Of a stretch of 58,131 bases of DNA, positions 22,001 to 44,269 are shown piece by piece. Source of the stretch: a virus (Duplodnaviria; Caudoviricetes); the IMG/VR virus record IMGVR_UViG_3300048011_000030, positions 1 to 58,131 of that record; one strand, written 5' to 3'. The notes under the pieces are model-generated. The model saw nothing but the letters and a program-made list of their open reading frames with translations. It did not search any database and had not been told where the DNA came from. The number at the start of each line of letters is the position of its first letter. Within the stretch, counting starts at the first letter, position 1. A program made the position numbers and the translations under genes.

Positions 22001-23027
22001 GAAGTTGCTTCGAGAAACTGGTTTCTACGCTTGGGAAGTAGGTGCTGCAACAACCACAGGTGTCAGTGAGGTTTCAGACAGTCGTAAGAATGTTATGGAA
22101 GCTTTCTTTAGGGCTATTGGTTTGACCCAATGGACTGACTATACTCGTGCTGTTCGTGCAAGTATGGCCTATGACTTCATATCTATTAACTCTAAGATAG
22201 TATTTCAAAGAGACTCAGGATTAACACCTGATACTCGTGAGGCTCAGGAGGCAGAGCAAAAGCTGAGAAGCTTAGGGATACCTGTAGAACAGTTCGTACC
22301 TCTCAATAGTAGAATTGAAAGGGCTGGACCTGAGGGTCTTAGAGATCCTAGGTCTATGGATCTCTGGAATCAAACAATGAAGGAAGCTACCTACAACTTT
22401 ATCAACCAAGCAGTAGCCCTACCAAGTGCAGCCAATCGTCCTTTGATCTATCAGGATCCTAGGTTGGCTTTGTTCACACAGTTCCAAGGTTTTATCTCTA
22501 CCTTTACAGCAAACCATATACCTCGGATGTGGAATGACTACATTAAACGTGGTACTCCAGCAATGAAGTACAACACCTTTGTACTTATGTCTACTATGAT
22601 TGCCCTAGGATTCTTCTCACAGGCAATGAAAGACGAAATCAAGTTTGAAGATGATGATGATGAAGGTACACTGGGTAATCCATATCTGGACACACCTGAG
22701 TATGTTCGTCGTGGTGTCATGGCTTCTGGTTTGTTTGGTACAGGTGAGCGAGTCATTGATATGTTTGCACCTATCTATGGTCAACGTACTGATGGTATTG
22801 GTGGTTGGTTATACAATCAAGCCACAGGCGAAAGCCCCACAGTTGGTTACGTTGGCAGGCTTGGTGATGCAACTTTGAATGTAGCTAAGGGTGACTTTGA
22901 ACGTGCTGTGTATCAGGGTTTGAAATCAGCCCCTGGGATTGGTCCCTTTACAGACACAAACAAAAGCCTAGCTAGTCTTCTAACTGGTGGTGGTTGGAAC
23001 TATAAAGACAATAAGGAGAATCAGTAA
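19014..23027 (+). CDS. Large internal virion protein (T7 gp16-like position) with N-terminal SNase-like domain
   Basis: FIDGDSL..YRIAGYDSAE..GGGR pattern; hydrophobic helices near aa 305-350; no Cys seen. Confidence 0.65.
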   Translation: MGILDDINAYKPTTLAGTNKHFIDGDSLDNPDGPNYRIAGYDSAEVSKLIGNRVIEGTAGGNASAEITARLANEQGFTNIVPLFNPDGSRMMDSGGGRQMVDLVNENGESFSRSMISSGAGNITTYATDSDVLAKSIAEAERNEAFRKGDYEPSAFDQAAYAIKSAELYEGAKSLGLKQTLFDEQERASYINYFMNQGMSREAATNEMNNYFTRDVQLRKPGVSLDNKSLNPVSDSWEQGWISVGESAYGVANLVGSSTGAEGLERWGEDGVRRQQGKLAEYGYTINNYKDVDSIGSALEYLGSTMALSLPYMAITAGSAIAGTVAAPVIGATAAVAGAVAIPSFMYAGQTWNDMEGDNDSKSATIAIGSGIAQAVLDRLGLKGIGGIAKNPIQTIRDDIPKALAKARNISLSEAKLIVKQEADFAIGQFANEAQKIAKAQLTAKQTSMRALGSVGVGSVSEGLTEVGQEAIGYLAAVQGSDKVFDYEEFQERLANAAVAGTALGGAFSIPGTVKDQITWMDAAARFGEPIPQADIERYVEEEKAAHGGIVRTVPQLLTDVQKEVDASDDLGFNINERETEHKQTTGQKTFMERASTSVMNVSNLWQAAVTNAIPKATLDKSKSARALASILGGTLTPLHGGSGIEAAQHHLVTYYKNQVHDPKVFYKNMGLKSLAGVFKASDRARISDLTYKALRAAIDKRGNFNKNLVPKDTPNRQMIVDLGNQLMGLGQELRQNQLDAGADLGNIKAYLLKYKSIDKTAVSKNPEMFTNLLVSEYKISRAEALRITDEIRDNPNVYDLDSADAIISNVGSLNPPSHKSRKFGLSQNEKFDQFYEKDIFANVANASKTAARYVTQMKYVGKDGEIVSKLLNNMQAEGVSNEEVNRVASEVKNILEAVSGNYNRPTTQAGKKLMRFQKNVMFWMTLSALPLATFSSLPEMAMTQGALTRDQIFGKNGSIKNIAQEAVSGLLPQLRKVEASTEDRILRQNTGSEGQKLLRETGFYAWEVGAATTTGVSEVSDSRKNVMEAFFRAIGLTQWTDYTRAVRASMAYDFISINSKIVFQRDSGLTPDTREAQEAEQKLRSLGIPVEQFVPLNSRIERAGPEGLRDPRSMDLWNQTMKEATYNFINQAVALPSAANRPLIYQDPRLALFTQFQGFISTFTANHIPRMWNDYIKRGTPAMKYNTFVLMSTMIALGFFSQAMKDEIKFEDDDDEGTLGNPYLDTPEYVRRGVMASGLFGTGERVIDMFAPIYGQRTDGIGGWLYNQATGESPTVGYVGRLGDATLNVAKGDFERAVYQGLKSAPGIGPFTDTNKSLASLLTGGGWNYKDNKENQ

Positions 23028-26000
23028 TGGCTATACCAGTGATTAAAGGGGGGAGTGCTGAGCTCCCCTCTCAGACTTTAGAAGATCGATTTGCTACAAC
23101 TGAGCAGGTACCCCCACAACAGGAAGAACCTGCACCACAATCAACAGGTATCCTACAGGACATTGCTAACACCACCCCAGAACAGATTGCAGCAATCACA
23201 CAGGTGGATGCATCTGAGTTAACACCTGATTTAATTATCCCAGAACAACAGGGGAATGATAACAGGTTCTTGGTACCTGATATGGCTACTCGTGCTAAGA
23301 CAGACAACCAAAGGTACAATAGGATCACACCTGTTCAACTCCCAAAGGTAACTGTTGCAGCACAATCTGAAGCTGGTGGTAATCTTAGATCTCGTGCAAA
23401 GACTTTGGTTCAGAATGTAAACTCTGGTAATCTTGGGTTAAACCTTACAGGTCTTGGTACCCCAGCCTACGCATTAACCAAAGGTGATTCACCTGTTTCA
23501 GGACCAGCACTTGCGGATGCTATCGCTGAATCTTCTGAAGGTAACATTGTAGCTGCTATCAGTAGGGCTGATGCAATTGTAGAATCTGAGGGTGGTATGA
23601 AGATACCTAACCCAATGTACACACAGATTGCCTCTGCTATCATTGAAGATACTTTTGGTGGTAACTTGGACAACACCCTTGATCCTCTTGCAGAGGCAAT
23701 GGGAGATCCATCTGTCCCTGTGGAAAGCCCAAACAAAACACTCACACACGCTGAGGGTAACGCACAGATAGGTAACAGGATACATCTTGAGTACCAGCGT
23801 AGGAAGAGGCAGGCCATGATAAGTCAGGGTGCTCCTGAGGCTGACCCTCAAGTTCAAGCATTGGCATCTCCAGATAAACTACCACGTAAGGAAGCGGAGA
23901 CACTGGGGGCTGCGTTCAAGCAGTTGTGGGCAGACTCTAACCCAACACTTGTCACACGAGCTGTTGATCCAAAGACCCGTCAGATAGTGTATGGTCTAAC
24001 TGCAGAAGGTGAAGCCGCTATTAAAGAGGGTGAGCTTGATCGTAAACAGATATTTCCCCGTCAGATAGTACGCCCTCAGAAAGTACCTAACCAAATGGCT
24101 GGTACTGATGTTGGTAAGAACGTAGTTCGAGCAGTGTCTGGTGGTAAGTCTGGTCAGAAGATGGGTCGGATAATAAACCAAGCTATTGATAACTTAGGTC
24201 AGGTTGGACATGTAGTCGATAAACAACGCATGAAGATTCTGTACTCTACGGTCTTGGCTACACTAGCAACCAATGATCATGAGACTTGGCAGGCTGAGAT
24301 CAACAATGTTGGTCAGTCTAGGATGGATAGATTCAATGCTGCTGCTAAGATGCAGGAGCGTAAGCTTGCAAATAATCCAGAGCTTAGAGAAGAACTCTAT
24401 AGCCCAAAGGAAAATATCAACAACTTGTTTGATAAACTAGCACAGGAAGTGCAGTCACTAGCACAGGAACGCAATGGTATCAACTACCTTACCTATAATG
24501 TTCAGGGTTTCCAAGGGAGGTTGACACCTCAGCAATCCTACTTTAACCCAGTGACATCTAAGGCTGTTCGGTTTGCCACAAGATCACCTAACCCATCTAT
24601 CATTAGACCTGGGAACAGGCAAGAGAAGAACTTGCGTCAGATGTATGCCATGATCCTGTTGTCTAAAGTTAAAGACTCTCAAGGTAATACAATTACAGAT
24701 GCTGGTGATACCTTCTTACCTGCCCAAAGGGAAGTGTTGCTCAAGGCTAGGGAGTCTGAGCTATATGGTTATGGTAAGCGGCTTGCACAAGCACTGGAGA
24801 TGACTGATGCACAGTATGAAGCTGTGTCTGAGGCTATTGCTAATGGTGTTCCCTTAGACTCTCCACAGTTCCCACAGTTTAATCAACTTAGTCTTGATCC
24901 GAATAGTGATTATGACAGTATGATTATTAAGATGATCAAGGACAAGGGGGAAGATGGTCTACTGCTAATGGATACGTTAATAGACTTCTCTAAGTACGTT
25001 GACTTTAAAAGGAACTACCCTAACGACAAGCAGTTCATTAGCTATGTCAATGCTTACATGGATGGTAAGACTAATGGTCCTGCGAGTCAGGGTATGCAGA
25101 TGGGTGAGATACCAACAGCTTTCTTAACTGGTGTTCTCAGAGCAAAAGGTAACAGGTCAACCCTCTTAGATGATGGTGACATACGCGATAAGCTTATGGG
25201 ATTAGCTAATCAGAGTATAGAAAGTGGTTGGGAAAACATCAGTGAGGATCTATTTCCACAACTGAATGATGTTGCTCGTGCTGTATTCAGTAACAGGGAT
25301 CTAGCTAAGCTGACTATCATGACCTATGGTTATGGTAAGGAGATGGAAAGTTTTGTAACTGACATTGAAGAAGTGTTGGAAGTTTTAAATGAAGAACTAA
25401 TAAAAGACTCTGAAAGTTCTTATGGCCCCAGTCTTTCTATTATAGACTCCACTATGTCACGTAGAGATTTAGCTAAGGTTCTCTTAGAGAAATACAAAGG
25501 ATCTATTGAAGGTGTTATGACCGCTGACTCAATAGAGTCTAGATCTATCATGAGGGCTGCTGCTGCACTTCACGCTGCTATGAATGAGCCTTTCATCATC
25601 AAAGGTCCAACGGGGATGGACATCCATATTGGTGGTGAATCCTCTACAGGTTATGATGCAGCATCTAAAAGTACCTATAAGAGCAGATCTCCTGAGACTG
25701 GTGAGATGGTTAAGACAACTGTTGCACACTATGAGACTGAGACTACGGCTGCTGCTACTCGTAATAGAACAAACCCAGATGGTACCATTGAAGGTACTCC
25801 TGGTGAGTTTGCTTATGGTGGATCTGTTGTTGCCCCTATTCAAGCTGTTGATGCTGCCACCGTAGCAATGACTGCCTCTGGTAAGTCTTGGGACAGGGCA
25901 GGCAAAGCATCCAATGGAAACCCATTCCTCTTAACTATCTACGATGCTTTTAAAGTAGATGCTAATGGTTATGATGTATTCCTAGAGGAGATTAATCTCA

Positions 26001-26527
26001 ACTGGATGGATGCAACCCTTGACTGGAGCTATTTAGAACAAGCACGTAACTCCTTGACTGAGGCGACTAAGCGTTTTGAAGAGAAGATGAAAGGTAGGGC
26101 GCCTGGTGACAAGCTCACAGATAATGAGAAGGTCTATATGGATTGGATGCTTAAGGTATCCCCTGCTGCCAGTGGTAATATGTACATGGCTAATCTTTGG
26201 GGACGCATGAGTAAACTAACAGGTACTGCTGGGAAGGTCAGGACAGAAGAGCAACTCCAAGAAGATCGTGTTCGCATGTCTAGGGTAATGGCTGCGGAGA
26301 TGAAGAAGGTGGGGTATGATCCATATAACCCGCCATCTGAGCCCACTGTCAATCAGCTCAAGACCTTTAAGGGTCTTCTTCGGAATGAGTTAAACTTACA
26401 TTCTAGGTTGCCAGATGTTATTAAAAGAACTAATAGCAACAAGTCAGCCCTTAAAAAAGAGCTGCTTATGAATGGATACAAAACCGAAAGCGGTAGACGT
26501 ATTCCACTGCAATACTACGCACACTAA
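23027..26527 (+). CDS. Putative virion-encapsidated single-subunit RNA polymerase (N4 vRNAP-like)
   Basis: YNVQGFQGRL..FNPVTSKAVR; motif A MDGKTNGP; motif B RDLAKLTIMTYGYG; PIQAVDA; motif C TIYDAF; no Cys in 1166 aa; last gene of the ejection cluster. Confidence 0.8.
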   Translation: MAIPVIKGGSAELPSQTLEDRFATTEQVPPQQEEPAPQSTGILQDIANTTPEQIAAITQVDASELTPDLIIPEQQGNDNRFLVPDMATRAKTDNQRYNRITPVQLPKVTVAAQSEAGGNLRSRAKTLVQNVNSGNLGLNLTGLGTPAYALTKGDSPVSGPALADAIAESSEGNIVAAISRADAIVESEGGMKIPNPMYTQIASAIIEDTFGGNLDNTLDPLAEAMGDPSVPVESPNKTLTHAEGNAQIGNRIHLEYQRRKRQAMISQGAPEADPQVQALASPDKLPRKEAETLGAAFKQLWADSNPTLVTRAVDPKTRQIVYGLTAEGEAAIKEGELDRKQIFPRQIVRPQKVPNQMAGTDVGKNVVRAVSGGKSGQKMGRIINQAIDNLGQVGHVVDKQRMKILYSTVLATLATNDHETWQAEINNVGQSRMDRFNAAAKMQERKLANNPELREELYSPKENINNLFDKLAQEVQSLAQERNGINYLTYNVQGFQGRLTPQQSYFNPVTSKAVRFATRSPNPSIIRPGNRQEKNLRQMYAMILLSKVKDSQGNTITDAGDTFLPAQREVLLKARESELYGYGKRLAQALEMTDAQYEAVSEAIANGVPLDSPQFPQFNQLSLDPNSDYDSMIIKMIKDKGEDGLLLMDTLIDFSKYVDFKRNYPNDKQFISYVNAYMDGKTNGPASQGMQMGEIPTAFLTGVLRAKGNRSTLLDDGDIRDKLMGLANQSIESGWENISEDLFPQLNDVARAVFSNRDLAKLTIMTYGYGKEMESFVTDIEEVLEVLNEELIKDSESSYGPSLSIIDSTMSRRDLAKVLLEKYKGSIEGVMTADSIESRSIMRAAAALHAAMNEPFIIKGPTGMDIHIGGESSTGYDAASKSTYKSRSPETGEMVKTTVAHYETETTAAATRNRTNPDGTIEGTPGEFAYGGSVVAPIQAVDAATVAMTASGKSWDRAGKASNGNPFLLTIYDAFKVDANGYDVFLEEINLNWMDATLDWSYLEQARNSLTEATKRFEEKMKGRAPGDKLTDNEKVYMDWMLKVSPAASGNMYMANLWGRMSKLTGTAGKVRTEEQLQEDRVRMSRVMAAEMKKVGYDPYNPPSEPTVNQLKTFKGLLRNELNLHSRLPDVIKRTNSNKSALKKELLMNGYKTESGRRIPLQYYAH

Positions 26528-26588: not shown

Positions 26589-26873
26589 AAGCATACCTTT
26601 CTTTGCAAGGAGCTCTCGGTACTCCTTCATTTGGTCTTGCTTACGCTGTCGTGCTTCTTTATCATTGATCACACCACCCTCTAGATCTTCTGCAATACCA
26701 ATGTCCATGACACGTGGCATAAGATCCTTTGTATAAGCCAGCTCTAAATCTAAAGATGTCTTTGTTAGTGGGTTAGTGTTCCAATCAGAGATGAACTCAT
26801 CGTCATCTACTTGAACACCTCGTAGTGCTAAATGATTATATGATTTACGCGAAGAAGTAGTCACTGTTTTCAA
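26583..26873 (-). CDS. Hypothetical protein (96 aa) between the two RNAP genes
   Basis: RBS aaggag; overlaps the RNAP 3' end. Confidence 0.7.
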   Translation of the reverse strand: MKTVTTSSRKSYNHLALRGVQVDDDEFISDWNTNPLTKTSLDLELAYTKDLMPRVMDIGIAEDLEGGVINDKEARQRKQDQMKEYRELLAKKGMLK

Positions 26874-29139
26874 TCTCCTTTATATCTAAGCTGCCCAATG
26901 TAGGTTGTTCCACATCATCTTCAGCATCTGTAATGAAGTTACGTATAACCTCAAAGTAATTATCGTAGTCGTACATGCGTATGAATACTTGTTTGGTTAG
27001 GTCGAGTAGTTTATCTACATCACAGGCATGAGTACTGAAGCTATCATGCACAGCTGCAAAGGAACCATCCCACTCAGAGATAACCAAAGCCATATGACTA
27101 GCATCCATAGAGTGTATGTAGTTAGGTGACATACCACAGATGAAACCTCTCCTGTCTGGCATACGTGTAGGTACAAGGGCTACGTGTGTAACCTGACCTG
27201 TCTTATTTCCATAGCCTTTGATGCGTCCCCTAGCTTTTCTATCTTGCATAATCCATTTCTCATAGATCACATGGAACCCTGATGGTGTACTCCATTCAAC
27301 CTTATCCTTACCCTTACCATGCTTTAGACTTGTGGTGAACTGTTTAAGTTTAACCACAACATCGTTAAGCTCATAGAGATCTTCATCAGTCTTGAAGTTC
27401 TTCTTCATTAATGTATCACGTATCTTAGACAGGCTACGATATTCAGTGTTGGCTTCGTATCCATCTGAGTCTACCTTTATGTGTGTACCTAATTGATACA
27501 TAGCTAGGTTCTGTAGGTAACTCATAGTAGATAGTGGGCCTGGACATACCTTATCAATTGCTTTGATCAGTAGTTTAGATAGCTTAGTACAGTCGTCCTG
27601 TGTGATATCATACTCTGTGTGGTAGTCCTCTGACTTACAATCGAAGAACATGTTCTCAGCGATCTTCTTAGAGCCTGCTGAGTATGCCCTAGTCATGGAG
27701 CCACGCTTAGATATACCCTTACGTATACTCTTCATAGGCATACTAGACAGTATCCCATTAAGTCTATCATCTTTACACAGATTAATCATTTCTTTAGCTG
27801 TTTGCACATAGAAGTCTTTCTGTATCTCTGAGGGTATTAGACCAACCAACTCACCAGTTTGTTCGTCCTTAGAGATTGCTCCTAGGTGTTGCCAACCATT
27901 GTTACTCCCATCAATAGGGATAGGTAGGCTAGTCATGTGGATACGATTGTCTCTGTAAGCACAATCAAATTCATACCACTCAACACAAGCAGCAAGGAAG
28001 GATACTTTCTTCTCAGCTTGACCAGAGAACTGTGAGTTCTTACCAGCCTCTATGATCTCATCCATGTACTCATTGGTCCAGATGATACGATCTTCTAGGG
28101 TCATCTTGTCAACAGAGATGTTGTCTAACCCTTCACTCTCAAGGTGTTCTTTGTAATCAGATGTACACCAATCAGGTATCTCATCGATGTTGTAGGACAT
28201 GTTGAAGACAGACGCTGTGTGTATAGCTAACCACTGTAACCCACTTTCAGTCATGGGCTTTGAGTGTTGGAACTTAAACAAGCCCCTAGCTAGATCAGAT
28301 CCTTGGAAGTTCATAAAGCTCTCACAGTAGTAGAACCTACCACGATAGTCTACATCCAGGTACTGATAGAAAGCATCTAGCTCTGATAGCTTACGTGCCT
28401 TCTCTGATATGAATGCCCACTCAACCATCTTACTCCTACGCTTGAGTTCTTTAGCATCATTGTCCTTGATAGGATCAGTAGATAGGAACAACTCTTTGTT
28501 CTCAATCATTGCATTGTAGACTGGTTTGTTTATCTTCCAAGCAGTCTGCTGAAGTTTGTTAAGGGCTTGTACCCAAGGTGCATAGGGGTCTATTGGATCA
28601 CCCTCCACCCTACCTTTGATCACTGGCCTGTGTACTCCATTGATCTGTTGTATCATACCAGATATATCTTTCGGTCGTATGATACTGGTAGAGGCTAAGG
28701 GGAAACTCCCACCTCTCTCAGGTATCACACCTAACTCATACCATCTATGAGATGCAGACACCACATGGCAGCTGTTACGGGTCTTAGCATAGGACAAGTC
28801 GATAAACCCCAGGTTGTATAGGGCTTCTATGAACAGGTCTCCTATGGACACTACAGAGCCCCAGGGAAGGGGCTCTCTATCTAGTTCTTTACCCACACTC
28901 TGACCTATCTTACTAGATGCATTAGTGAGTGTGGTTGTACCAGCTGGGCTTGAGCTGGTATCCTTAGTGAATTGCATTTGAAGTATGGAGATACTCTTAA
29001 CAACGTACCCTTCCATACGTTCATTATAGTTTCCAGACAATCTCATCAAGAGCCCAGCAAGGTGGGGTCTTCGACGTGCGGGACTCACACCATCTACCCT
29101 TTCGACAAGGTAATCAACTATCTCTTGGAGTGCTGACAT
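26845..29139 (-). CDS. T7-type single-subunit DNA-dependent RNA polymerase (764 aa)
   Basis: DYRGRFY, NFQGSD, DGSNNGWQH, RKGISKRGSMTRAY, PNYIHSMDASH, VHDSF. Confidence 0.95.
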   Translation of the reverse strand: MSALQEIVDYLVERVDGVSPARRRPHLAGLLMRLSGNYNERMEGYVVKSISILQMQFTKDTSSSPAGTTTLTNASSKIGQSVGKELDREPLPWGSVVSIGDLFIEALYNLGFIDLSYAKTRNSCHVVSASHRWYELGVIPERGGSFPLASTSIIRPKDISGMIQQINGVHRPVIKGRVEGDPIDPYAPWVQALNKLQQTAWKINKPVYNAMIENKELFLSTDPIKDNDAKELKRRSKMVEWAFISEKARKLSELDAFYQYLDVDYRGRFYYCESFMNFQGSDLARGLFKFQHSKPMTESGLQWLAIHTASVFNMSYNIDEIPDWCTSDYKEHLESEGLDNISVDKMTLEDRIIWTNEYMDEIIEAGKNSQFSGQAEKKVSFLAACVEWYEFDCAYRDNRIHMTSLPIPIDGSNNGWQHLGAISKDEQTGELVGLIPSEIQKDFYVQTAKEMINLCKDDRLNGILSSMPMKSIRKGISKRGSMTRAYSAGSKKIAENMFFDCKSEDYHTEYDITQDDCTKLSKLLIKAIDKVCPGPLSTMSYLQNLAMYQLGTHIKVDSDGYEANTEYRSLSKIRDTLMKKNFKTDEDLYELNDVVVKLKQFTTSLKHGKGKDKVEWSTPSGFHVIYEKWIMQDRKARGRIKGYGNKTGQVTHVALVPTRMPDRRGFICGMSPNYIHSMDASHMALVISEWDGSFAAVHDSFSTHACDVDKLLDLTKQVFIRMYDYDNYFEVIRNFITDAEDDVEQPTLGSLDIKEIENSDYFFA

Positions 29140-33971: not shown

Positions 33972-33985
33972 GTTGCGTCCTTTCT

Positions 33986-34759: not shown

Positions 34760-35417
34760 CGTCATTCTCCGTCAGTGCATCCCAGCTGACAGGGAATAAC
34801 TCAATCATCTTGTGGTCTATCTGCTTTGCTACCTCTCGTGTCTCTACCTGTGTGTCAGGCTTGCAGCGCAGGTTACACATATCAGCGAAGGCATCCAAGC
34901 TGCCTGACCAGTACCACTCAGTCATAGTAGACTGTGGCAGTACCATCCGTGCTTGCTCAGGGGCTACACCTGCATCTAGTAAGGCATTGTACGCACAGAG
35001 TGCCTCATGTGGGCTGTCCGATACTATAGTATCATCCAGTGTTCCAAGTTTAACCTCACCCTCAGAACCCTGCTTCTTGTCAGCACTTCGCCCACGCCAC
35101 ACTTCAGGTACATAGAACTCAGGCTCATCATCTACATACCGCCTAGAAATCTCGTTCCATCTTAAGAACTTATGCTTGACTAGCTGTCGTGCTACAAATA
35201 TCGGAGCCTTAACGTGGAAGGATGCGAAGCAATGCCCAAATGGACTGATGTGGTTATGCTTGGCTAGGTAACGAATGAGCTTATCATCCTTAGCCTTTAG
35301 CTTAGGTGGTCCCCACGGGTCGTCTTCCATCTCAGATGTCTTACCGAATGACACACGGGCTGCGTTAGCTACAGTCAAGTCATTACCCATGTGGTCAATG
35401 TACGTTGCTTTAATCAT
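34752..35417 (-). CDS. thyX: Flavin-dependent thymidylate synthase
   Basis: ANAARVSF, HISPF, RQLVKHK..NEISRRY, EQARMVLP. Confidence 0.95.
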   Translation of the reverse strand: MIKATYIDHMGNDLTVANAARVSFGKTSEMEDDPWGPPKLKAKDDKLIRYLAKHNHISPFGHCFASFHVKAPIFVARQLVKHKFLRWNEISRRYVDDEPEFYVPEVWRGRSADKKQGSEGEVKLGTLDDTIVSDSPHEALCAYNALLDAGVAPEQARMVLPQSTMTEWYWSGSLDAFADMCNLRCKPDTQVETREVAKQIDHKMIELFPVSWDALTENDDE

Positions 35418-35619
35418 TCTTTTTACTTTCCTGCTCAGTGATGTTACGTACAGTTCGGTGAAAGTCTATAACACTACGTGCTACTTCGTCAATCTGAGTA
35501 CGATGTATACCCACATCACGAAGCTCTAGGTCATTAAGTTGATGGAGTGCTTTAATAGTTTCATTCATATTACGTCTGCGTCTTAGTGTTTCTCGTATCT
35601 CTTTAATCTTATCAAACAT
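35410..35619 (-). CDS. DUF1127 (YjiS-like) small protein
   Basis: RRRNMNETIKALHQLNDLELRDVGIHRTQI. Confidence 0.8.
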   Translation of the reverse strand: MFDKIKEIRETLRRRRNMNETIKALHQLNDLELRDVGIHRTQIDEVARSVIDFHRTVRNITEQESKKND

Positions 35620-35797
35620 TTAAAGCTTCCTTTATTTTTTTATCAGTGTAGTCCATATACTTACTAGGTATACCATCTTCGTAACAACGTTTATACACCA
35701 TCTCTGTGAATGTTTTCTCAGTAGAGAAATCACCGAACATGTAGACATTCCGTATGATTTCTTCAATGTCCGTTGCTATTTTATTAAAGCCACCCAT
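35612..35797 (-). CDS. Hypothetical protein
   Basis: Coupled ORF. Confidence 0.65.
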   Translation of the reverse strand: MGGFNKIATDIEEIIRNVYMFGDFSTEKTFTEMVYKRCYEDGIPSKYMDYTDKKIKEALNV

Positions 35798-36042
35798 TAG
35801 ATGTAATCCCGCATATTCTTATCAAGCTGCTCTATACGCATCTCTGCGTACCGGATGACTTTACGTAGGTCTGTTATCTCTGACCCAATACCATCTTCAC
35901 CCTCATACATCTTATGACCAGCCCTCATGGAGTATTTAATAATGTTACCAACATGAAATGGTAAGTCATTCTCCATGATGAATGTAATAGGTTCTATTTT
36001 ATAACGTGTGTAGTGTGAAGGTTTGTTAACAATATCTGACAT
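35797..36042 (-). CDS. DUF3310 family (T7 gp1.7-like nucleotide kinase)
   Basis: DIVNKPSHY..FHVGNIIKY.MRAGHK..DLRK. Confidence 0.78.
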   Translation of the reverse strand: MSDIVNKPSHYTRYKIEPITFIMENDLPFHVGNIIKYSMRAGHKMYEGEDGIGSEITDLRKVIRYAEMRIEQLDKNMRDYI

Positions 36043-36051
36043 TTTATGCCC

Positions 36052-36073
36052 TTTCTTTAAGTTCCTTATAGAG
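36052..36073 (+). promoter_or_regulatory. Putative T7-like phage promoter (copy 2, before the terS candidate)
   Basis: tttctttaagttccttatagag. Confidence 0.75.
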
Positions 36074-36084
36074 AAGAGAGTTGT

Positions 36085-36118
36085 CTCTCTTTTAAAATCC
36101 GACCCCCGTGGTCGGATT
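36085..36118 (-). promoter_or_regulatory. Putative hairpin promoter H1 (before replication operon)
   Basis: + strand ctctc-ttttaa-aatccgacc-cccgt-ggtcggatt; one of four conserved hairpins. Confidence 0.6.
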
Positions 36119-36145
36119 CATAAAGTATTATAAGAGGTAATCACT

Positions 36146-36538
36146 ATGACTAGAGAGGTTCATCCAAACAGCCTTAAGAATTTAGCACCTTCATTCACCA
36201 AAGACAATGCTCGTGAGATGCAATTAAAATCTGCAGCTTCCCGTAAGGCAGCTAGAGATGCTAGAGAAGCTTTGAAGATGAGTATGAAAGATTGGCGTCA
36301 GTACAAGGAAGATGTGCTAGATCATATTGATATGAACTCTCTTGATGTCTTGAAGATCCTTATGTTCAAAGCTTTGGACAAAGAAGATTTTGATACAGCT
36401 AGTGATCTCGCAGCAAAAGTTGCAGAGTATGAGCAACCCAAACTACAGCGCAGGGAACTCCAAATTGAGGAGATAGGTGCTGAGAGTTTGTCTGATGAAG
36501 AACTCGACGATAAGATACGAGCACTGCGGATAGTGTGA
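36146..36538 (+). CDS. Putative terminase small subunit
   Basis: HPNSLKNL N-terminus, helical body, QPKL..ELQI..LSDEEL C-terminus; only + strand gene in the minus arm, with its own promoter and terminator. Confidence 0.55.
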   Translation: MTREVHPNSLKNLAPSFTKDNAREMQLKSAASRKAARDAREALKMSMKDWRQYKEDVLDHIDMNSLDVLKILMFKALDKEDFDTASDLAAKVAEYEQPKLQRRELQIEEIGAESLSDEELDDKIRALRIV

Positions 36539-36568
36539 GGTTCTAGTAGAACCTGAAAGAAAATGCCT

Positions 36569-36627
36569 GTGCGCTTTGTCGGTTATCTAAAAAAACAAGT
36601 AAGTGCGCTTTGTCGGTTATCTAAAAA
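36569..36627. repeat. 25-bp perfect direct repeat x2 (34-nt period)
   Basis: gtgcgctttgtcggttatctaaaaa at 36569-36593 and 36603-36627. Confidence 0.9.
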
Positions 36628-36631
36628 TTAT

Positions 36632-36676
36632 AAGAACCCAAAGATTCTCTGTGAGAGTCTCTGGGTTCTTTTTTTT
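36632..36676 (+). terminator. Intrinsic terminator after the terS candidate (possibly bidirectional)
   Basis: aagaaccca-a-agattctc-tgt-gagagtct-c-tgggttctt followed by a T-run. Confidence 0.8.
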
Positions 36677-36920
36677 ATTTCCATAGGAGTCCGTGGAATC
36701 CCTCTGTAGAGTCAAAGGATTTTATAAGATCCTTAAACATCCTGGGTGACATAGTTACTACATCGTATCCCTCAATGTCTTGATTGAATTGTCTCATAGA
36801 TACATAGCCTTCGTATTCTCCAGCGTTTTCTATGATTACCCCAAGGTCAAGATCATCTCCTGAATCATCCATAATAACTATCTCAGTCGTCCAGGGTTTT
36901 TCTTCGATTGTGAATGGCAT
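36675..36920 (-). CDS. Hypothetical protein
   Basis: Coupled ORF (TAATG). Confidence 0.7.
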   Translation of the reverse strand: MPFTIEEKPWTTEIVIMDDSGDDLDLGVIIENAGEYEGYVSMRQFNQDIEGYDVVTMSPRMFKDLIKSFDSTEGFHGLLWK

Positions 36921-37174
36921 TACATTTTACTTACGCCAAGGACACCACCGTTCTCCCACTCTGCATAGAGACCATGATCATTAAGAATATCATTGATTTT
37001 ATGGTTAACACCGAAGTCATCTAGTGATGCATTGTTTTCGGCATAGTAGTCAGCCCATACAGTTTCATAGTTTTCCTCTGCTGAGATTACAAAGTCATCT
37101 TCACCATAGTCTTTTACAGGTACCCCGATCTTACGAAGCTTGTTGAATGCTGTGCGATATTCTCTTTTCATCAC
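36920..37174 (-). CDS. Hypothetical protein
   Basis: RBS gaggag; GLYAEWEN motif. Confidence 0.7.
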   Translation of the reverse strand: MMKREYRTAFNKLRKIGVPVKDYGEDDFVISAEENYETVWADYYAENNASLDDFGVNHKINDILNDHGLYAEWENGGVLGVSKM

Positions 37175-37350
37175 GCCATCTCCTCTGTCTCTTCTACACC
37201 CATTTGCTGAATAAACTCATCAATAATTTCACTGTCAGCTACATGATAACACTGTGTCAAGTCATGTGTGACGTAATCAATCAGACCTTCGATGTCTAAT
37301 GATTCTACATACTTATCAATAGCTGCTTCTAATTTGTCTGCTTTATACAT
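37171..37350 (-). CDS. Hypothetical acidic protein (59 aa, MYKADKLEAA...), not in ORF track
   Basis: RBS gaggag; fills the gap. Confidence 0.65.
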   Translation of the reverse strand: MYKADKLEAAIDKYVESLDIEGLIDYVTHDLTQCYHVADSEIIDEFIQQMGVEETEEMA

Positions 37351-37362
37351 TACGCCGTCTCC

Positions 37363-37677
37363 TCAACGATCATCACCAGAGCCACTGAGAGTACCTTTAG
37401 AAGCACGATTGTGTAGTTTAAGTAGGTTATCTGCTGCCAGGGTGTCAAGGTCTTCTCCGAGGTAGTGTGCGAGTACTGCTACATACCATAGGACATCTCC
37501 TAGCTCTGCTGCAATACCATCATAAGATGCACCATCACGAATACATTTCTTGATTTTGTTTGCAACTTCCCCAGCTTCTCCACATAGACCCAATGCTAAG
37601 TAGGGAATTGCTTCTGACTCTGGGAAGATTGCAGTTTCTCTAGCTTTAGTTTGATATTGATTCATATAGATTGTCAT
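37363..37677 (-). CDS. mazG: MazG-like nucleotide pyrophosphohydrolase
   Basis: LGLCGEAGEVANKIKK..ELGDVLWY..GSGDDR; start moved to MTIYMNQYQ. Confidence 0.9.
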   Translation of the reverse strand: MTIYMNQYQTKARETAIFPESEAIPYLALGLCGEAGEVANKIKKCIRDGASYDGIAAELGDVLWYVAVLAHYLGEDLDTLAADNLLKLHNRASKGTLSGSGDDR

Positions 37678-37712
37678 GTTAGGAAGTTCCTTTTTAGTGA
37701 GCCAGTATGATA

Positions 37713-37946
37713 TCACTCTGTGCGGAAAGCTTCGTAGAGTTTCCACTGTGCTTCTGCTAGTTTGTTAACATCTGAGACATACAGATCATTACATTCTTGT
37801 AACATCTCTACCGCGTTTTTCATAGTTTGTTGTGCTGATTTGATTGCATCTTGTTGAATTTCAGTTAGTAACTCAAAGTTCTTTTTGTTTTCTTCAAGAC
37901 GTTTATTGAACTTTATTTTCCATTCTGGGATTTCATCAGTTTTCAT
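37713..37946 (-). CDS. Hypothetical protein
   Basis: Coupled ORF. Confidence 0.7.
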   Translation of the reverse strand: MKTDEIPEWKIKFNKRLEENKKNFELLTEIQQDAIKSAQQTMKNAVEMLQECNDLYVSDVNKLAEAQWKLYEAFRTE

Positions 37947-38575
37947 CAGTATCTCTTTACTTTTTCTATAATTGTATCCACATCATTGACCTCATAGCAT
38001 AACCGACAGTCCTGACACTTTTGACCAGTGCAGTTCTGCTGCTCTACAAACTCATGGGTTAATACATTGTTGAATGTTTTATCAAAGTACCTAGGAGGCT
38101 TTGACATTACTACGCTTTTCTTAGGGTTGCTGTAGATAAGGTTTAGGTTTTTTGGTTTGTTGTTTGTTTTCATCCAACGAAACACAAGGTCTGTTCGTTT
38201 AGTCCAGAGGGCGAATTGGCACCAAGGGTTATCGACAACAATTAGCATCAAGTTGTTTAGGTGTTGCATGTTTATTAGCTCACCATGTGCATTGAATCTG
38301 AATATGCTATCGATAATCCTTGGGACTTCTTGTGGTTCTAATGGTCTTGAAGACAGTAAGTCACTATTCCGTTGTAGTGCTGGAGCCATGTTTTTTCGGA
38401 AACCGTCCAGCATTTTATGGCTGTAGCAGTCCCCGCAGATATTGTCTGTCTTGTTTTCTATGGCTTTCTTGTGTTGATCTATGCAATACTTGTTAGTCTT
38501 AGTGTTAGTACTGATTGATTTTAGACCTTGAAGTTTACCTGTCATTACAGATATGTGTACTGCGGGTTTAGTCAT
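37946..38575 (-). CDS. Cys-rich Gp88-like (radical-SAM-like) protein
   Basis: C..CGDCY, FRFNAHGE, LWTKR, CTGQKCQDCRLCY. Confidence 0.6.
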   Translation of the reverse strand: MTKPAVHISVMTGKLQGLKSISTNTKTNKYCIDQHKKAIENKTDNICGDCYSHKMLDGFRKNMAPALQRNSDLLSSRPLEPQEVPRIIDSIFRFNAHGELINMQHLNNLMLIVVDNPWCQFALWTKRTDLVFRWMKTNNKPKNLNLIYSNPKKSVVMSKPPRYFDKTFNNVLTHEFVEQQNCTGQKCQDCRLCYEVNDVDTIIEKVKRY

Positions 38576-38585
38576 AAGGGGTCCT

Positions 38586-38828
38586 TTATGTGTCTATTTC
38601 TTCTACACCATCATCATCTATAGATATGAAGTCATTCTCTATACCATACGTTGCATAGAGAGCACCAATTGCTGTGAAGATCTCATGTTCTGTGTAGTCT
38701 TCATGGCTTTGCATATCTATTTCATACTCATTGTTTGTACCAATCCACATCGTCACATGGAATAGTTCATCAATTCTCCTGAATGTATCTTCTTTAGGTT
38801 TAGGCTTGAACTGGATTATTTCAGACAT
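38586..38828 (-). CDS. Hypothetical protein
   Basis: MSEIIQFKPK start; coupled. Confidence 0.65.
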   Translation of the reverse strand: MSEIIQFKPKPKEDTFRRIDELFHVTMWIGTNNEYEIDMQSHEDYTEHEIFTAIGALYATYGIENDFISIDDDGVEEIDT

Positions 38829-39006
38829 GAGGTTGTTCACCCATGTCCTCTGCGTAGTTATCCATACAATCGTGCATGTCTCTTAAGGTATGCCCTAAGT
38901 CTGTGAAGAGTGTTTCTGCTTCTACACGAGATAGGATGAGTGCTCGTTCTGCAATTTCGATAACCACTTCTCCTTCTGCTGTCCAGAATACATTTGATTT
39001 ATCCAT
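38821..39006 (-). CDS. Hypothetical protein
   Basis: RBS gagga. Confidence 0.65.
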   Translation of the reverse strand: MDKSNVFWTAEGEVVIEIAERALILSRVEAETLFTDLGHTLRDMHDCMDNYAEDMGEQPHV

Positions 39007-39032
39007 TTGAAGCTTTTCCTCACGATAAGTTA

Positions 39033-39245
39033 TTAGTTGAAGCCACGTAGTTTGATTACGTTGCGGATGCGATCTACAGTTGATGCTGAAAGTTTAGAAC
39101 GAGATACAAACCGACCTGTTTCAACATCCCGTGCTACAGATAAATATCCTTGGTGGCCGGAGAATGAACCTACTGGTTTACCATAGCGATTTGTTACACG
39201 ACGAAATTGCAGGTTTTGGCGACCGATTGGGTTTACTGTTGTCAT
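39033..39245 (-). CDS. Small basic hypothetical protein
   Basis: RBS gaaagg; RDVETGRFV motif. Confidence 0.7.
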   Translation of the reverse strand: MTTVNPIGRQNLQFRRVTNRYGKPVGSFSGHQGYLSVARDVETGRFVSRSKLSASTVDRIRNVIKLRGFN

Positions 39246-39395
39246 AGTGTTAGCCTTTCATGACTAATTTAAGTTAAGATCTTTTTCTAGTAGTTGCAAC
39301 CATAATGTAACCAACTACCCATACTCCAAATAAAATTGATATATTAAAATGCCTCTTGTTGGAATTGAGCTTTGTCGGACTCTCCAAAAATCAGA

Positions 39396-39710
39396 GTGAC
39401 CCCTATGGGTCACGAAGGATTCTGAAGGAATCCTATAGAGATCTAAAAGATCTCTCTGAGGAATCTTGAAAACCTTTAGGTTTTTGAGACTCCGATTAAA
39501 AACAGGATCCCGTAAGGGATTCTATTTAAAAACTATGAACCCTGACCGGAGACCTCAGCGCAGCATTACTACGGGGTCTCAACAGTCAGGGGTACAGGGA
39601 CCTCAACGAGAACTTCAACAAGGAGTTCGTATCGGAGTCACCTGTATTAGTTGTCCCAACTGGAGTTTGAGCTTGAAAGGATTAAAGAACCCATACTCAA
39701 CAGTTGGAAC
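39396..39710. ncRNA. Candidate structured non-coding element (RNA or ssDNA origin)
   Basis: At least six consecutive stems in a ~530-nt intergenic gap; G.T pairs favour + strand folding. Confidence 0.35.
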
Positions 39711-39775
39711 AGACAACACGGGAGGTGTGTTGTATTAAATTGTATCAGCAGTTTATTGAGATGCTTAGCTCATTA

Positions 39776-39807
39776 CTCTTTTTAAATCCGGTCCCTGTGG
39801 CCGGATT
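39776..39807 (-). promoter_or_regulatory. Putative hairpin promoter H2
   Basis: + strand ctc-ttttta-aatccggtc-cctgt-ggccggatt. Confidence 0.6.
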
Positions 39808-39819
39808 CATAGAGGATGT

Positions 39820-40317
39820 TTAGAACATTGCTTCTAGGTCTTCTTCTTTAGCTACACCTGTAGAAGATGTAGCAGGAGAAACATCACCAACAACATCAAA
39901 GTCGATGGAGTTAGAACCATTGTATTCTACAAGATCAGTTACTTGAATAGCAGTAAGTGAGCTCATAATACCTTGGCGTCCAGCTTTATCGTATGGGAAC
40001 TGAAACAAGATTACGTTACCACGAGATCCATTGCCTATTGTGGAGGCGTCAATTGGTTGTTTTGTGTTATCAACAACACGAACTTTACCATTGCTTTCAC
40101 CATTAGCTTTGAACTCTTTACGCTTAAGAGACGCTACCCACTTGCCATCTTTTTCTTTCATAGCAATGTGATTAGCAATGAGATTTTTAGCTACATCAGA
40201 ATTATCTGTTGCAATTTGGATCTCATACTGTGAAGTACCGAAAGGTGATTGTGGTGTTACCAGACGAGCCCAATTAAGTTCAATGTCTGAGATTAGATAG
40301 TTACGTGGCTTTTCCAT
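39820..40317 (-). CDS. ssb: Single-stranded DNA-binding protein (T7 gp2.5-like)
   Basis: WARL..P, IGNGSRG, LTAIQVTDLVEY, acidic tail ending in Phe. Confidence 0.8.
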   Translation of the reverse strand: MEKPRNYLISDIELNWARLVTPQSPFGTSQYEIQIATDNSDVAKNLIANHIAMKEKDGKWVASLKRKEFKANGESNGKVRVVDNTKQPIDASTIGNGSRGNVILFQFPYDKAGRQGIMSSLTAIQVTDLVEYNGSNSIDFDVVGDVSPATSSTGVAKEEDLEAMF

Positions 40318-40350
40318 AGGTTTTCCTTTACATGGATTGTGAGAGGATAT

Positions 40351-40385
40351 CTCTCTTTTTAAATCGATCCCCCTGTGGGTCGATT
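40351..40385 (-). promoter_or_regulatory. Putative hairpin promoter H3 (before ssb)
   Basis: + strand ctctc-ttttta-aatcgatcc-ccctgt-gggtcgatt. Confidence 0.6.
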
Positions 40386-40386
40386 A

Positions 40387-40494
40387 CTATTGGTTACTGT
40401 TAGAATCTTCTTTGAGAATAATCCTAATCCAGCCATAAGCATACCAGATACAGAAGATCAGCCATGCTGCTATTAGACCTGAGAGTAATAACAT
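40387..40494 (-). CDS. Small membrane protein (35 aa), not in ORF track
   Basis: MLLLSGLIAAWLIFCIWYAYGW...; coupled TAATG. Confidence 0.55.
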   Translation of the reverse strand: MLLLSGLIAAWLIFCIWYAYGWIRIILKEDSNSNQ

Positions 40495-40685
40495 TAGTTA
40501 CTTCCTTTGTTTAGATCTTTGAGCCTGGCTTCAACATGTCTCAATCTATCGTATAGGTTTTCAAGTTCATCAAGAACCCATGAGGGTCTGACACCATGAC
40601 CATACTTGTTGTGTAAGTTATAGATCTCATTTTTATACATTGAGGCACTGGTTTGAGCCAGCTCTATTTCTCCAGACATACTCAT
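40494..40685 (-). CDS. Hypothetical early protein
   Basis: Coupled ORF. Confidence 0.65.
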   Translation of the reverse strand: MSMSGEIELAQTSASMYKNEIYNLHNKYGHGVRPSWVLDELENLYDRLRHVEARLKDLNKGSN

Positions 40686-40852
40686 TGGCTATTCCTGTAA
40701 GGTTGACATGATAGGTATCCGATTGATTCTTGTAGCACATAGAAATCATCTATACGTTTAAGACAATCCTCACCTGTTAAGTTGTAATCAAGGATGTGAT
40801 CTACACCACACCCTTGGTACATTGTTAGAACTAGGATGAATACCTTAGTCAT
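40682..40852 (-). CDS. Hypothetical early protein (56 aa, MTKVFILVL...), not in ORF track
   Basis: Coupled at both ends. Confidence 0.6.
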   Translation of the reverse strand: MTKVFILVLTMYQGCGVDHILDYNLTGEDCLKRIDDFYVLQESIGYLSCQPYRNSQ

Positions 40853-40962
40853 TATGTATACCCCAAGATTTCTTCAACATAGTACTTAGCTTTCACTTCA
40901 GTCATAAGAGGATACTTCTCTATGGTTGCTTTGATAGCCTGTTCTTTTGTTAGCTTAGTCAT
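40852..40962 (-). CDS. Hypothetical early protein (36 aa, MTKLTKEQAI...), not in ORF track
   Basis: RBS gagga; coupled. Confidence 0.55.
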   Translation of the reverse strand: MTKLTKEQAIKATIEKYPLMTEVKAKYYVEEILGYT

Positions 40963-41341
40963 TTGATACATCCTCATGTGTTAAAAGTGATAGTAGTTCT
41001 CTAACTGACCAACCAGACCTACGAGACAACTCTTTCAATGTAAGATTGGGAGATGAATCGTATGTGTCTATTATGTCATCGACATCCCAGACTTTAGGGA
41101 CACCATGTGCAAGGTCTTCTTGCTTTTCAATTAGAGTACGAATATTCTGAAGAGTTTCTATGAGACTATCCAGAGTATCATCATACTTCATAATAACCCA
41201 ATCATCAGATCCTGAAGGTAAGATGGCAACCTCTTGAACTGAGGTCACTTCACTCACACCCGCTTCAAACTCTTGATGTTGTGCTATAGAGATGTTTCTG
41301 TTGAGGTGTTTTACTTTTATGTTGTTTGTATCCATTGACAT
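40955..41341 (-). CDS. Hypothetical early protein with possible C-terminal HTH
   Basis: Start moved to MSMDTNN; PNLTLKELSRRSGWSVRELLSLL resembles an HTH. Confidence 0.6.
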   Translation of the reverse strand: MSMDTNNIKVKHLNRNISIAQHQEFEAGVSEVTSVQEVAILPSGSDDWVIMKYDDTLDSLIETLQNIRTLIEKQEDLAHGVPKVWDVDDIIDTYDSSPNLTLKELSRRSGWSVRELLSLLTHEDVSND

Positions 41342-41502
41342 TATTTGACTGTCCTTTCGATAGGTGATACTTCGATGAACTCTATATGATATCCACCGAA
41401 TTCTTTTACGTGTACACCCATACCATTGGCATCGATGTAGAATACTTTGATTACTGCCCATGTTAGGATAGCAGCAAAGAGGAGCATAGAGAGTTTAGGC
41501 AT
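41341..41502 (-). CDS. Small signal-peptide/membrane protein (53 aa), not in ORF track
   Basis: MPKLSMLLFAAILTWAVIK...; coupled. Confidence 0.55.
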   Translation of the reverse strand: MPKLSMLLFAAILTWAVIKVFYIDANGMGVHVKEFGGYHIEFIEVSPIERTVK

Positions 41503-41737
41503 TAGTAACTAACCCCTCTATTTCACTATCATCACCGAATAGCATAAACCAGTCTTCAGGTGTAAGACCAGTCTTTATGAACTCACGTTGATCTGCATCA
41601 AGCATTGGGAAGGCATCTTGTATATTAGCACCTTCTGACCATGCAACATAACAATCATTGAATACCGTTTGAAGCATGTCGAATTCCATTGTGTTGTTTT
41701 TCCCAGTGATGGGTGATCTGTTTGTGTAGTGTATCAT
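41495..41737 (-). CDS. First early gene, hypothetical
   Basis: Start MIHYTNRSP after RBS gaaagga; IQDAFPML..QREFIKTG..PEDW motif. Confidence 0.7.
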   Translation of the reverse strand: MIHYTNRSPITGKNNTMEFDMLQTVFNDCYVAWSEGANIQDAFPMLDADQREFIKTGLTPEDWFMLFGDDSEIEGLVTNA

Positions 41738-41785
41738 GGTATATCCTTTCAAGATATATTCAGTACAGGGACAACCCCTATGTTT

Positions 41786-41815
41786 CTTCTTAGATCTGGC
41801 CCCTGTGGACAGATC
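41786..41815 (-). promoter_or_regulatory. Putative hairpin promoter H4 (before the first early gene)
   Basis: + strand c-ttctta-gatctggcc-cctgt-ggacagatc; same loop, different stem sequence. Confidence 0.55.
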
Positions 41816-41892
41816 ACATACTATCGGAACCAATCAGGTAGAGTATCGATAGATCTATAAGAACCCAAGAGATACACATAGCTTGGTCTTAT

Positions 41893-42325
41893 CTGAGAGT
41901 ATGCTGAGAGATACTGAGAGAGTATTGAGAGATGCTGAGAGATCTATAAGAGACTGAGAGATCTTATAGTATAGGTATATATATAGTAACCTAAGGGAGG
42001 GACTGGATAGCTTCTCCCTATAAGGAACTTAGAGAATGTTACACCATCCCCCCACAGTCTCTCACAGAATCCCACACAATCCCACAGTCCCGCTAGATCC
42101 TATGCCACAAGAGACTCTCAGAGAGCCTCACAGAACCTATAGAGGGCTCAGAGTACTCACAGTACCTAAGAGATAGACACCTACCTGAGAGAGCCTCTGA
42201 GAGATCTAGGGGGGTACTAAAAAACTATGAGGGTACCTGATAAAAAAAGTACTTATTAGGCTCTCTTTCTCAAAGACCCTCTATAAACCTCACAGGGGTA
42301 CCTCAATCTCTCACAGAACCCCCAC
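41893..42325. repeat. Short-repeat non-coding region, probable genome termini / packaging junction
   Basis: About six (c)tgagag units at 41893-41961 and many c(t/c)cacag units at 42051-42325; lies between the divergent arms. Confidence 0.65.
42016..42037 (-). promoter_or_regulatory. Putative T7-like phage promoter (copy 3, pointing into the early arm)
   Basis: Reverse complement is attctctaagttccttataggg, identical to copy 1. Confidence 0.78.
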
Positions 42326-42348
42326 ATAATCTAAAAATAATATAGATA

Positions 42349-42370
42349 TATTTCTAAGTTCCTTATAGGG
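42349..42370 (+). promoter_or_regulatory. Putative T7-like phage promoter (copy 4, before terL)
   Basis: tatttctaagttccttataggg. Confidence 0.78.
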
Positions 42371-42394
42371 ACAATGTGACATAGAGGATACACC

Positions 42395-44163: not shown

Positions 44164-44164
44164 G

Positions 44165-44186: not shown

Positions 44187-44269
44187 AATAGAGATTCCTG
44201 CATTGTCCTCATAACGCGCTGGTGGTCGCGGCAGGTAAACCACCAACTAATTTTTGAGGAGTATTTAAA

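Follow-up and report, generated by a model that had tools for sequence, protein, structure and literature searches.

The complete IMG/VR virus record IMGVR_UViG_3300048011_000030 (Duplodnaviria; Caudoviricetes), analysed over its full 58,131 bp (hereafter the window; completeness rating 100%), carries four hairpin-forming elements in a minus-strand block of early and replication genes that runs from ~42000 down to 26583. The four hairpins are real and far beyond chance, and it is fairly probable that they are promoters of some phage polymerase. Whether, more narrowly, an injected polymerase uses them as template-strand hairpin promoters, as in phage N4 but with a 9-bp stem and a 5-6-nt loop, and in a phage outside the Schitoviridae, is a question on which we consider the balance to be even. 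The candidate reader is a cryptic single-subunit RNA polymerase (RNAP) of 1166 amino acids (aa), encoded on the plus strand at 23027..26527.

Four covarying hairpins in the early block

The first-pass annotation, made from the letters of the DNA alone, described four 9-bp stems, each with a C exactly 7 nt to its 5' side on the plus strand and each upstream of minus-strand genes. All four are present as nine-position stems (assigned to the minus strand), but a perfect 9 bp is found at site 1 only. This site (36096..36118; 5-nt loop; predicted +1 at 36089) scores 60.7 bits with the covariance model introduced below. Site 2 (39785..39807; predicted +1 at 39778; 59.5 bits), which lies 12 nt past the stop codon of a gene for a single-stranded DNA-binding protein (SSB), and site 3 (40362..40385; predicted +1 at 40355; 57.2 bits) each contain one T.G pair on the plus strand, and site 3 could as well be depicted with a bulged T in place of its 6-nt loop (40371-40376), the other loops being 5 nt long. 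Site 4 (41793..41815; predicted +1 at 41786; 55.3 bits) precedes the open reading frame (ORF) 41495-41737 as the first of the early-block hairpins, and has one G.A mismatch on the plus strand (T.C on the minus strand) that is unpaired on both. The C is where it was first described in every case (36089, 39778, 40355 and 41786), across a 6-nt A/T spacer.

Folded as single-stranded DNA (ssDNA), the plus strand at all four sites does better than its shuffles, with z-scores of -5.75, -4.68, -4.22 and -3.37. The sites have 20 of 47 columns invariant in common. The core CCCYGTGGNNNGAT has four exact occurrences, which are the four sites themselves, all on the plus strand, and a fifth match elsewhere carries one mismatch. 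Shuffled sequences hold 1.00 ± 0.83 such cores at ≤1 mismatch, and none of 100 shuffles reaches five. No Rfam family was matched at gathering score, and a tRNA scan was empty. The weak look-alike at 39396..39413 (minus strand) has a stem of 7 bp, a loop of 4 nt and, on the gene strand, a T-rich tail; it gives no covariance-model match at E ≤ 1 and was picked up by a terminator scan on the gene strand, and is more likely a terminator than a fifth copy.

Relatives carry the same element. A covariance model built from the four window sites was run over the window together with 65 loci fetched by way of their DNA polymerase (712,804 bases in all), and gave 79 matches at E ≤ 1. Of these, 52 are strong (E ≤ 3e-4), all of them gene-strand matches located upstream of the DNA polymerase gene; the remainder consist of three weak or truncated forward matches and 24 low-scoring echoes of the palindrome on the opposite strand. 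The model found no match in the 12 loci with a polymerase identity of ≤61%. Four complete relatives have four, three (plus one weak), four and four forward copies, respectively, all within the early block and none within the late block. The loop and its closing bases are invariant in the window and its relatives, as is the G located 7 nt after the stem, and sequence conservation ends just beyond this G.

Covariation in related genomes, which had been proposed as a check on the elements, is evident. Further hairpin variants were added from SSB-based loci, and the set compared comprises one representative of each of 27 distinct hairpins, in alignments that come from model hits and are hence biased towards structure. 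Seven of the nine pairs vary on both sides. Pairing occurs in 96.7% of 243 cells in the template orientation vs 93.4% in the gene-strand orientation, both far above shuffled and slid controls (slid controls pair in ≤52%), and the covariation score is 0.529 against 0.191 ± 0.023 for shuffles, none of 500 of which reaches it. At one pair, a single lineage traces the series A-T to A.C to G-C.

It had also been claimed that G.T pairs work only on the plus strand, the template for these genes. Once relatives are added, this survives as a trend: in all 13 inner-pair cells with a one-strand wobble the template strand has G.T and the gene strand A.C, the reverse kind does not occur, and by our reading the 13 cells represent about eight or nine separate events. 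Within the window the strand argument is weak, because the DNA fold energies of the two strands are near equal at sites 1 (-10.1/-10.2 kcal/mol), 2 (-8.1/-8.2) and 3 (-6.6/-6.5) and differ at site 4 only (-7.1 vs -4.8). Among the relatives, the terminal pair provides exceptions, detailed below. The overall pattern is suggestive of a real but modest lean to the template strand.

The reported position ahead of minus-strand genes is borne out at sites 1, 3 and 4, where the predicted +1 lies 47, 38 and ~49 nt from an ATG, but not at site 2, which is followed by ~530 nt without a minus-strand ORF of at least 50 aa. At site 1 the distance from +1 to ATG is 47 nt in the window, L020, L028, L035, L003 and L048, despite differing stems; at site 3 the distance to the SSB start is 38 nt in the window, L012, L020, L028, L035 and L048, and 37 nt in L037. 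Site 1 heads an operon that starts with a kinase-like gene, takes in ThyX, DNA polymerase and primase/helicase and reaches the T7-like RNAP, and it is the sole conserved signal ahead of ~9.5 kb of replication genes. It occurs just downstream of a strong hairpin at 36632..36672, a bidirectional terminator (T8 run on the plus strand, T-rich tail on the minus strand) that separates it from the upstream early genes and ends an embedded plus-strand gene, 36146-36538.

Other kinds of signal were considered for the elements. Intrinsic terminators were set aside: sites 1-4 are absent from the gene-strand terminator scan, the tails of sites 1, 2 and 4 are T-poor, and site 3 is listed on the opposite strand only. 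A sigma-70 scan of 26000-45000 gave 35 sites vs 45.8 in shuffles, and none is common to the four hairpins. A host repeat or terminator was also rejected, given that 185,579 species genomes yielded 63 single matches in unrelated taxa (rough expectation ~35), none with the full motif. The best of these bacterial pattern matches reaches 34.9 bits; nearly all phage copies score 37-64, and the weakest of the strong ones 33. Only four of the 21 bacterial matches at E ≤ 0.01 align across the whole model.

Some further features were noted close to the sites. The predicted transcripts of sites 1 and 3 would begin with a short 5' stem-loop (GAGAG...CTCTC; 36071-36089 and 40341-40355), and that of site 1 overlaps the start region of a divergent plus-strand transcript. 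The embedded plus-strand gene has a weak small-terminase-like PHROG match (E 1.8e-4) and its own copy of the linear motif described in the next section; beside it, at 36568-36627, are two copies of a 24-nt direct repeat, TGCGCTTTGTCGGTTATCTAAAAA. The ~530 nt past site 2 (39246-39778) contain three adjacent stem-loops at 39396-39455, vary in length among relatives, and are possibly a small RNA or tiny-ORF region. Nineteen runs were found, and the four best RNA-labelled ones, all from one study, were mapped to 26001-46000. In these assemblies (X1-X4) contigs break exactly at the hairpins, at 36095/36117 and 39782/39806, which is probably an effect of inverted repeats on the assembler.

Two polymerases and two signal classes

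ORF 23027-26527 was picked out by a motif scan of giant ORFs. It had been named as an RNAP at the outset, and by its catalytic residues, AlphaFold model and structure matches it is a single-subunit RNA polymerase with a predicted fold of the T7/N4 type. Its relatives number at least 254 at E ≤ 0.001, and no Pfam domain is recorded for any of them. In an alignment of 40 sequences G497 R498, D679, K761, Y769 G770 and D973 are invariant, and R757 is present in at least 90%; we take these residues to correspond to motifs T/DxxGR, A, B and C of single-subunit polymerases. The AlphaFold model (pLDDT 83, pTM 0.83) is matched by Foldseek to the yeast mitochondrial RNAP (E 1.1e-15), T7 RNAP (~1e-14 to 1e-13) and the complex of the N4 mini-virion RNA polymerase (mini-vRNAP) with its promoter (E 3.3e-12), the last with the highest query TM-score, 0.45. 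VIA Z-scores are 22.4 (6ymv_A), 22.0 (T7, 8dh1_E) and 19.8 (N4, 3c46_A, with the longest alignment, 768 residues), with ~550-770 residues aligned overall; these are near-ties that do not distinguish the closest polymerase branch. The language-model neighbours include related Atlas clusters in which 88-91% of members have PF00940.

The ORF was not seen by PHROGs, Pfam (E ≤ 0.1), phmmer, the 40-sequence profile against PDB sequences, tblastn against cultured phages, or hhalign against the 764-aa T7-like polymerase of the same genome. On a homologue in G009, PF00940 scores 19.1 bits, under the 22-bit cut-off. Alignment of the profile by hhalign to gp33 and gp34 of Roseobacter phage CRP-7 was not significant, and the best gp33 stretch falls at the motif-B region.

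The plus-strand structural genes run from 42395 to the end of the record and continue from 1 to 26527, and the block closes with three giant ORFs of 1259, 1337 and 1166 aa. The position of the 1166-aa gene, at the end of the late operon and after the other two, suits an enzyme that might be packaged for the next infection, and makes it a candidate virion (injected) polymerase. The early block comprises small early genes, the Gp2.5-like SSB (39820..40317, minus strand; phrog_112, 1.6e-15), with hairpin sites 3 and 2 on either side, MazG, ThyX, DNA polymerase, exonuclease, primase/helicase and, near its end, an ordinary T7-like RNAP of 764 aa (26845..29139, minus strand; PF00940, 8.6e-56). CRP-7 is the nearest cultured phage, with an RNAP 36% and a portal 54% identical and the same gene order. 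The portal of the window phage is nearest to that of CRP-7 and then to those of LUZ24/phiEco32-type phages; the phage is not a schitovirus. The accessible portion of the paper describing CRP-7 presents a new group, reports a single RNA polymerase and never mentions the word 'promoter'.

Alongside the hairpins there is a second, linear class of signal. The motif AAGTTCCTTATAGGGA occurs in five copies at ≤1 mismatch, where 0.62 are expected and none of 100 shuffles reaches this number. One copy (42015..42030, minus strand) points into the early block; the others, all on the plus strand (5040-5055, 36059-36074, 42356-42371 and 44172-44187), bring the genes preceded to an RNR gene, the embedded plus-strand gene, the large terminase and the portal region. 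Relatives G001-G004 have ~5 copies each. The end of the motif presumably resembles the initiation region of T7-group promoters, and AAGTTCCTTATAGGGA is plausibly, and we think likely, the promoter of the 764-aa T7-like polymerase. Because this second motif precedes late genes with a consensus of its own, the genome holds two polymerases and two classes of signal.

A sister clade (SSB 53-59% identical; L098-L104, with G013 and G014, which are L105-L108) has a different hairpin family at the same positions. These hairpins have 8-bp, AT-rich, covarying stems, a loop of CCAAGA or CCAAGC, and a 6-nt spacer followed by a conserved A. The loop word occurs 31 times, in 22 cases with a perfect 8-bp stem and in nine with 0-1 bp, and six of the eight pairs vary on both sides. 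The covariance model of this family (R2) finds two to five copies per sister record, always on one strand, that of the early genes, and the hairpins lie 12-19 kb from the gene for the 1166-aa-type polymerase, as in the window. In the two longer sister records both the 1166-aa-type polymerase and PF00940 are present. In G014 a linear-motif copy precedes one hairpin by 12 nt, with both in the same orientation, an order that suits tandem promoters, not a terminator. When the window is compared with the sister clade, identity is 57% for the T7-like polymerase, and the linear core TCCTTATAGG is retained. For the 1166-aa polymerase identity is 31%, and the hairpins have another loop and flank.

More distant relatives were searched as well. 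The distant DNA-polymerase loci L050-L062 gave a linear motif only and no hairpin family. In L050-L060 (for example L051:4412 and L060:7602), which belong to a third clade with both polymerases, ACCGACATCCCAG follows a T-rich stretch, often right behind a terminator-like hairpin. CRP-7 (L066 and L085; 2031 and 14769 on the plus strand, 38259 and 57209 on the minus strand) has a linear motif of the type TAGTCCCCTATTAAAAGGAG before early and late genes.

Several repeats in the record are of separate interest. Between the early and late blocks, the divergent intergenic stretch at 41880-42330 is dense with short repeats of the types CTGAGAGAT and CTCACAG, and it could hold an origin, regulatory sites or the genome ends. 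A tail-fibre-like gene of 1239 aa has, at 53770-55220, long arrays of 21-nt-periodic repeats rich in Ala, Ser and Thr. The record ends inside a tail-fibre-like gene, the start of which repeats the first gene of the record (1-127 is identical to 57357-57483 over 127 nt, 100%; 747-838 matches 58040-58131 over 92 nt at 97%); this reflects either paralogy between two fibre genes or strain variants that overlap in the assembly.

Promoters or other signals?

If the elements are N4-like promoters, the early and replication genes would be driven by signals recognised as a hairpin on the template (plus) strand. We infer that transcription initiates at the elements, on hairpins that would have to be extruded from double-stranded DNA. 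Each promoter would consist of an 8-9-bp stem in which the middle pairs are free to change as long as they pair, a conserved 5-6-nt loop with its closing C-G pairs, a 6-nt A/T spacer, and the conserved G as the predicted +1. The 1166-aa polymerase would be made late with the virion proteins, packaged and injected, as is the N4 vRNAP, and would then be the enzyme that transcribes the early block, including the genes for the SSB and the 764-aa polymerase. The latter enzyme may then express the late genes by way of the linear motif AAGTTCCTTATAGGGA. The first-pass annotation had proposed a new type of hairpin promoter with a 5-6-nt loop. Conservation, covariation, restriction to the early block, orientation, the fixed distance to the start codon, the RNAP fold and the sister family all speak for that proposal, but the strand argument it leaned on is a trend only, and the look-alike is not a member.

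A number of findings weigh against this reading. The case for packaging of the 1166-aa polymerase consists of its gene position and the match of a neighbour to a PHROG annotated as 'virion structural protein'. The geometry (9-bp stem, 5-6-nt loop, ~17-18 nt from hairpin centre to +1) is off that of N4. The intergenic spaces are tight: the hairpins are frequently 1-13 nt past the upstream stop codon, which also suits RNA 3'-end or processing signals. The strand pattern has exceptions, with three G.T cells on the gene strand at the terminal pair and true mismatches at position 14:25, five cells in all, and a bias in mutation could produce a similar asymmetry. Depth in the four RNA-labelled runs, which consist of assembled contigs, is flat and does not distinguish early from late genes. 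The third clade (G006, G008 and G009) has both polymerases, with the linear motif ACCGACATCCCAG and no hairpin family in its early region. CRP-7 is without such hairpins: the model of the window family (R1) gave no real match in its first 30 kb, and a whole-genome scan for perfect stems gave no repeated hairpin. With linear motifs in the third clade and in CRP-7, the hairpin reading is not universal in the group.

The assignment of the two polymerases could also be reversed, such that the 764-aa T7-like enzyme reads the hairpins and the linear motif serves the 1166-aa polymerase or another factor. A precedent comes from LUZ7, whose T7-like RNAPII also appears to read hairpins; in the accessible text of that study its middle promoters are hairpins with stems of at least 6 bp and 3-4-nt loops, ~15 nt upstream of a G start (PMC9163698). 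The 764-aa protein also matches an 'N4-like RNA polymerase' PHROG (phrog_2166, 4.4e-27), and none of the present findings ties either polymerase physically to either motif. However, the 764-aa gene is itself downstream of site 1, so that another enzyme would be needed to start the cycle. The linear motif precedes late genes, and a reader of it that was made late, and possibly injected, would abolish the distinction between early and late. Across clades, moreover, the conserved linear core tracks the 764-aa enzyme (57%) and the changed hairpins track the 1166-aa enzyme (31%). We consider the reversed assignment improbable.

An action of the hairpins as RNA of the gene strand is also unlikely in our estimate. 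They would then be processing or stabilising sites, or leaky terminators or attenuators, and a phage protein might bind them by way of the loop. T7 early RNA has intergenic processing hairpins, and the sites are intergenic, often within the stop-codon distance given above. The base of the stem is A/U, followed by one to three more U, and at sites 1-3 the gene strand folds no less stably than the opposite strand (by DNA parameters). Against this, 9 bp is short for RNase III, the tails of sites 1, 2 and 4 fail the terminator scan, and the sister stems are weak, AT-rich and only 8 bp long. On the gene strand the inner departures from pairing take the form A.C in 13 cells and G.U in none, the fixed purine 7 nt after the stem is conserved in both families, and, as to context, the G014 hairpin comes 12 nt after a linear-motif copy and site 1 comes after a real terminator. 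Still less probable, we think, are DNA signals other than transcription starts, such as priming or origin sites on the plus strand, sites of recombination or packaging, or operators bound by a DNA-binding protein of host or phage or by host RNAP. The strand-specific wobble would fit any ssDNA function of the plus strand, and the primase/helicase and SSB genes are nearby; yet the start-codon distances are fixed and the orientation is always with the genes. A dimeric operator would keep the sequence of its half-sites rather than covary, the four sites have no sigma-70-like hexamers in common, and the full motif was not found in the bacterial genomes scanned.

Comparison with known hairpin and linear promoters

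Our literature searches found hairpin promoters read by an injected single-subunit polymerase reported for N4-like phages only. One further podophage that is not of the N4 type has been proposed, on weak grounds, to have a putative vRNAP (PMC10747016). The comparisons that follow draw on the accessible portions of the cited papers. The early promoters of N4 have 5-7-bp stems and a 3-nt loop centred near -11, are conserved from -17 to +1 with a four-A ruler, and require gyrase and host SSB (PMC4496689). The G start of the N4 and LUZ7 hairpin promoters lies 11-15 nt from the hairpin centre (PMC4496689, PMC9163698), and that of the LUZ7 early promoters 13-14 nt (PMC9163698). In N4 it is the vRNAP that transcribes the genes encoding RNAPII and its cofactors (PMC13434306).

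The likeness to the promoters of N4 and N4-like phages (Schitoviridae, with gp50 as vRNAP) extends over much of this anatomy. The N4 promoters have a template-strand hairpin upstream of the start, as is proposed for the window. Both have a conserved loop and closing bases, stem positions at which only pairing counts, and a short A/T spacer that acts, or in the window may act, as a ruler to a purine start. The elements are few and confined to the early region (three in N4, nine in LUZ7 and four in the window). They stand ahead of genes that include a second, T7-like polymerase, and a single-subunit polymerase gene is found among the late or virion genes. The dimensions differ. The stem is 9 bp in the window vs 5-7 bp in N4 (at least 4 bp in LUZ7) and the loop 5-6 nt vs 3 nt; the hairpin centre is ~17-18 nt from the predicted start vs 11-14 nt, and the spacer 6 nt vs ~4 nt. 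In addition, the window polymerase is free-standing at 1166 aa, whereas that of N4 is the central domain of a ~3500-aa protein, and the late genes of the window apparently use a phage polymerase motif, not the host polymerase.

The middle promoters of LUZ7, read by RNAPII, are similar in that a GC-rich hairpin with a stem of at least 6 bp lies ~15 nt upstream of a G start and has a T7-like reader, and different in their 3-4-nt loop, their middle phase, and a heterodimeric enzyme that is helped by an ssDNA-binding protein (PMC9163698). T7 RNAP reads from -17 to +6 of its promoter (PMC4496689). It is the second signal of the window, AAGTTCCTTATAGGGA, that is like the linear promoters of the T7 group, being a short conserved sequence of the double-strand type with a G-rich start end before late genes. 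Unlike linear promoters of this group, the window hairpins vary in stem sequence and keep only the pairing.

We tentatively suggest, with slightly less than even confidence, that a widespread group of marine podoviruses outside the Schitoviridae (CRP-7-type phages and their allies) runs an N4-like programme. It would use a compact, free-standing injected polymerase of ~1,150-1,290 aa and a new hairpin geometry (8-9-bp stem, 5-6-nt loop, 6-nt ruler), with co-evolution of polymerase and hairpin in at least two families and one lineage that seemingly turned to a linear signal. If so, hairpin-reading virion polymerases would be an old and diverse solution rather than a peculiarity of N4, and an abundant group of marine phages would begin infection independently of the host polymerase. 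A hidden polymerase family, with the relatives counted above, would gain a function, and several new orthogonal pairs of polymerase and hairpin promoter, made up of compact enzymes and short ssDNA hairpins, would become available for testing how DNA structure is read. If not, the elements would still offer, in an uncultured phage clade, a clear example of an intergenic DNA or RNA signal that covaries and is strand-specific. The elements appear to resemble N4-type promoters in the respects examined, apart from the dimensions of stem and loop. Because those dimensions differ, and because the phage is not a schitovirus, we file them as a variant of the N4 kind rather than as a member of it.

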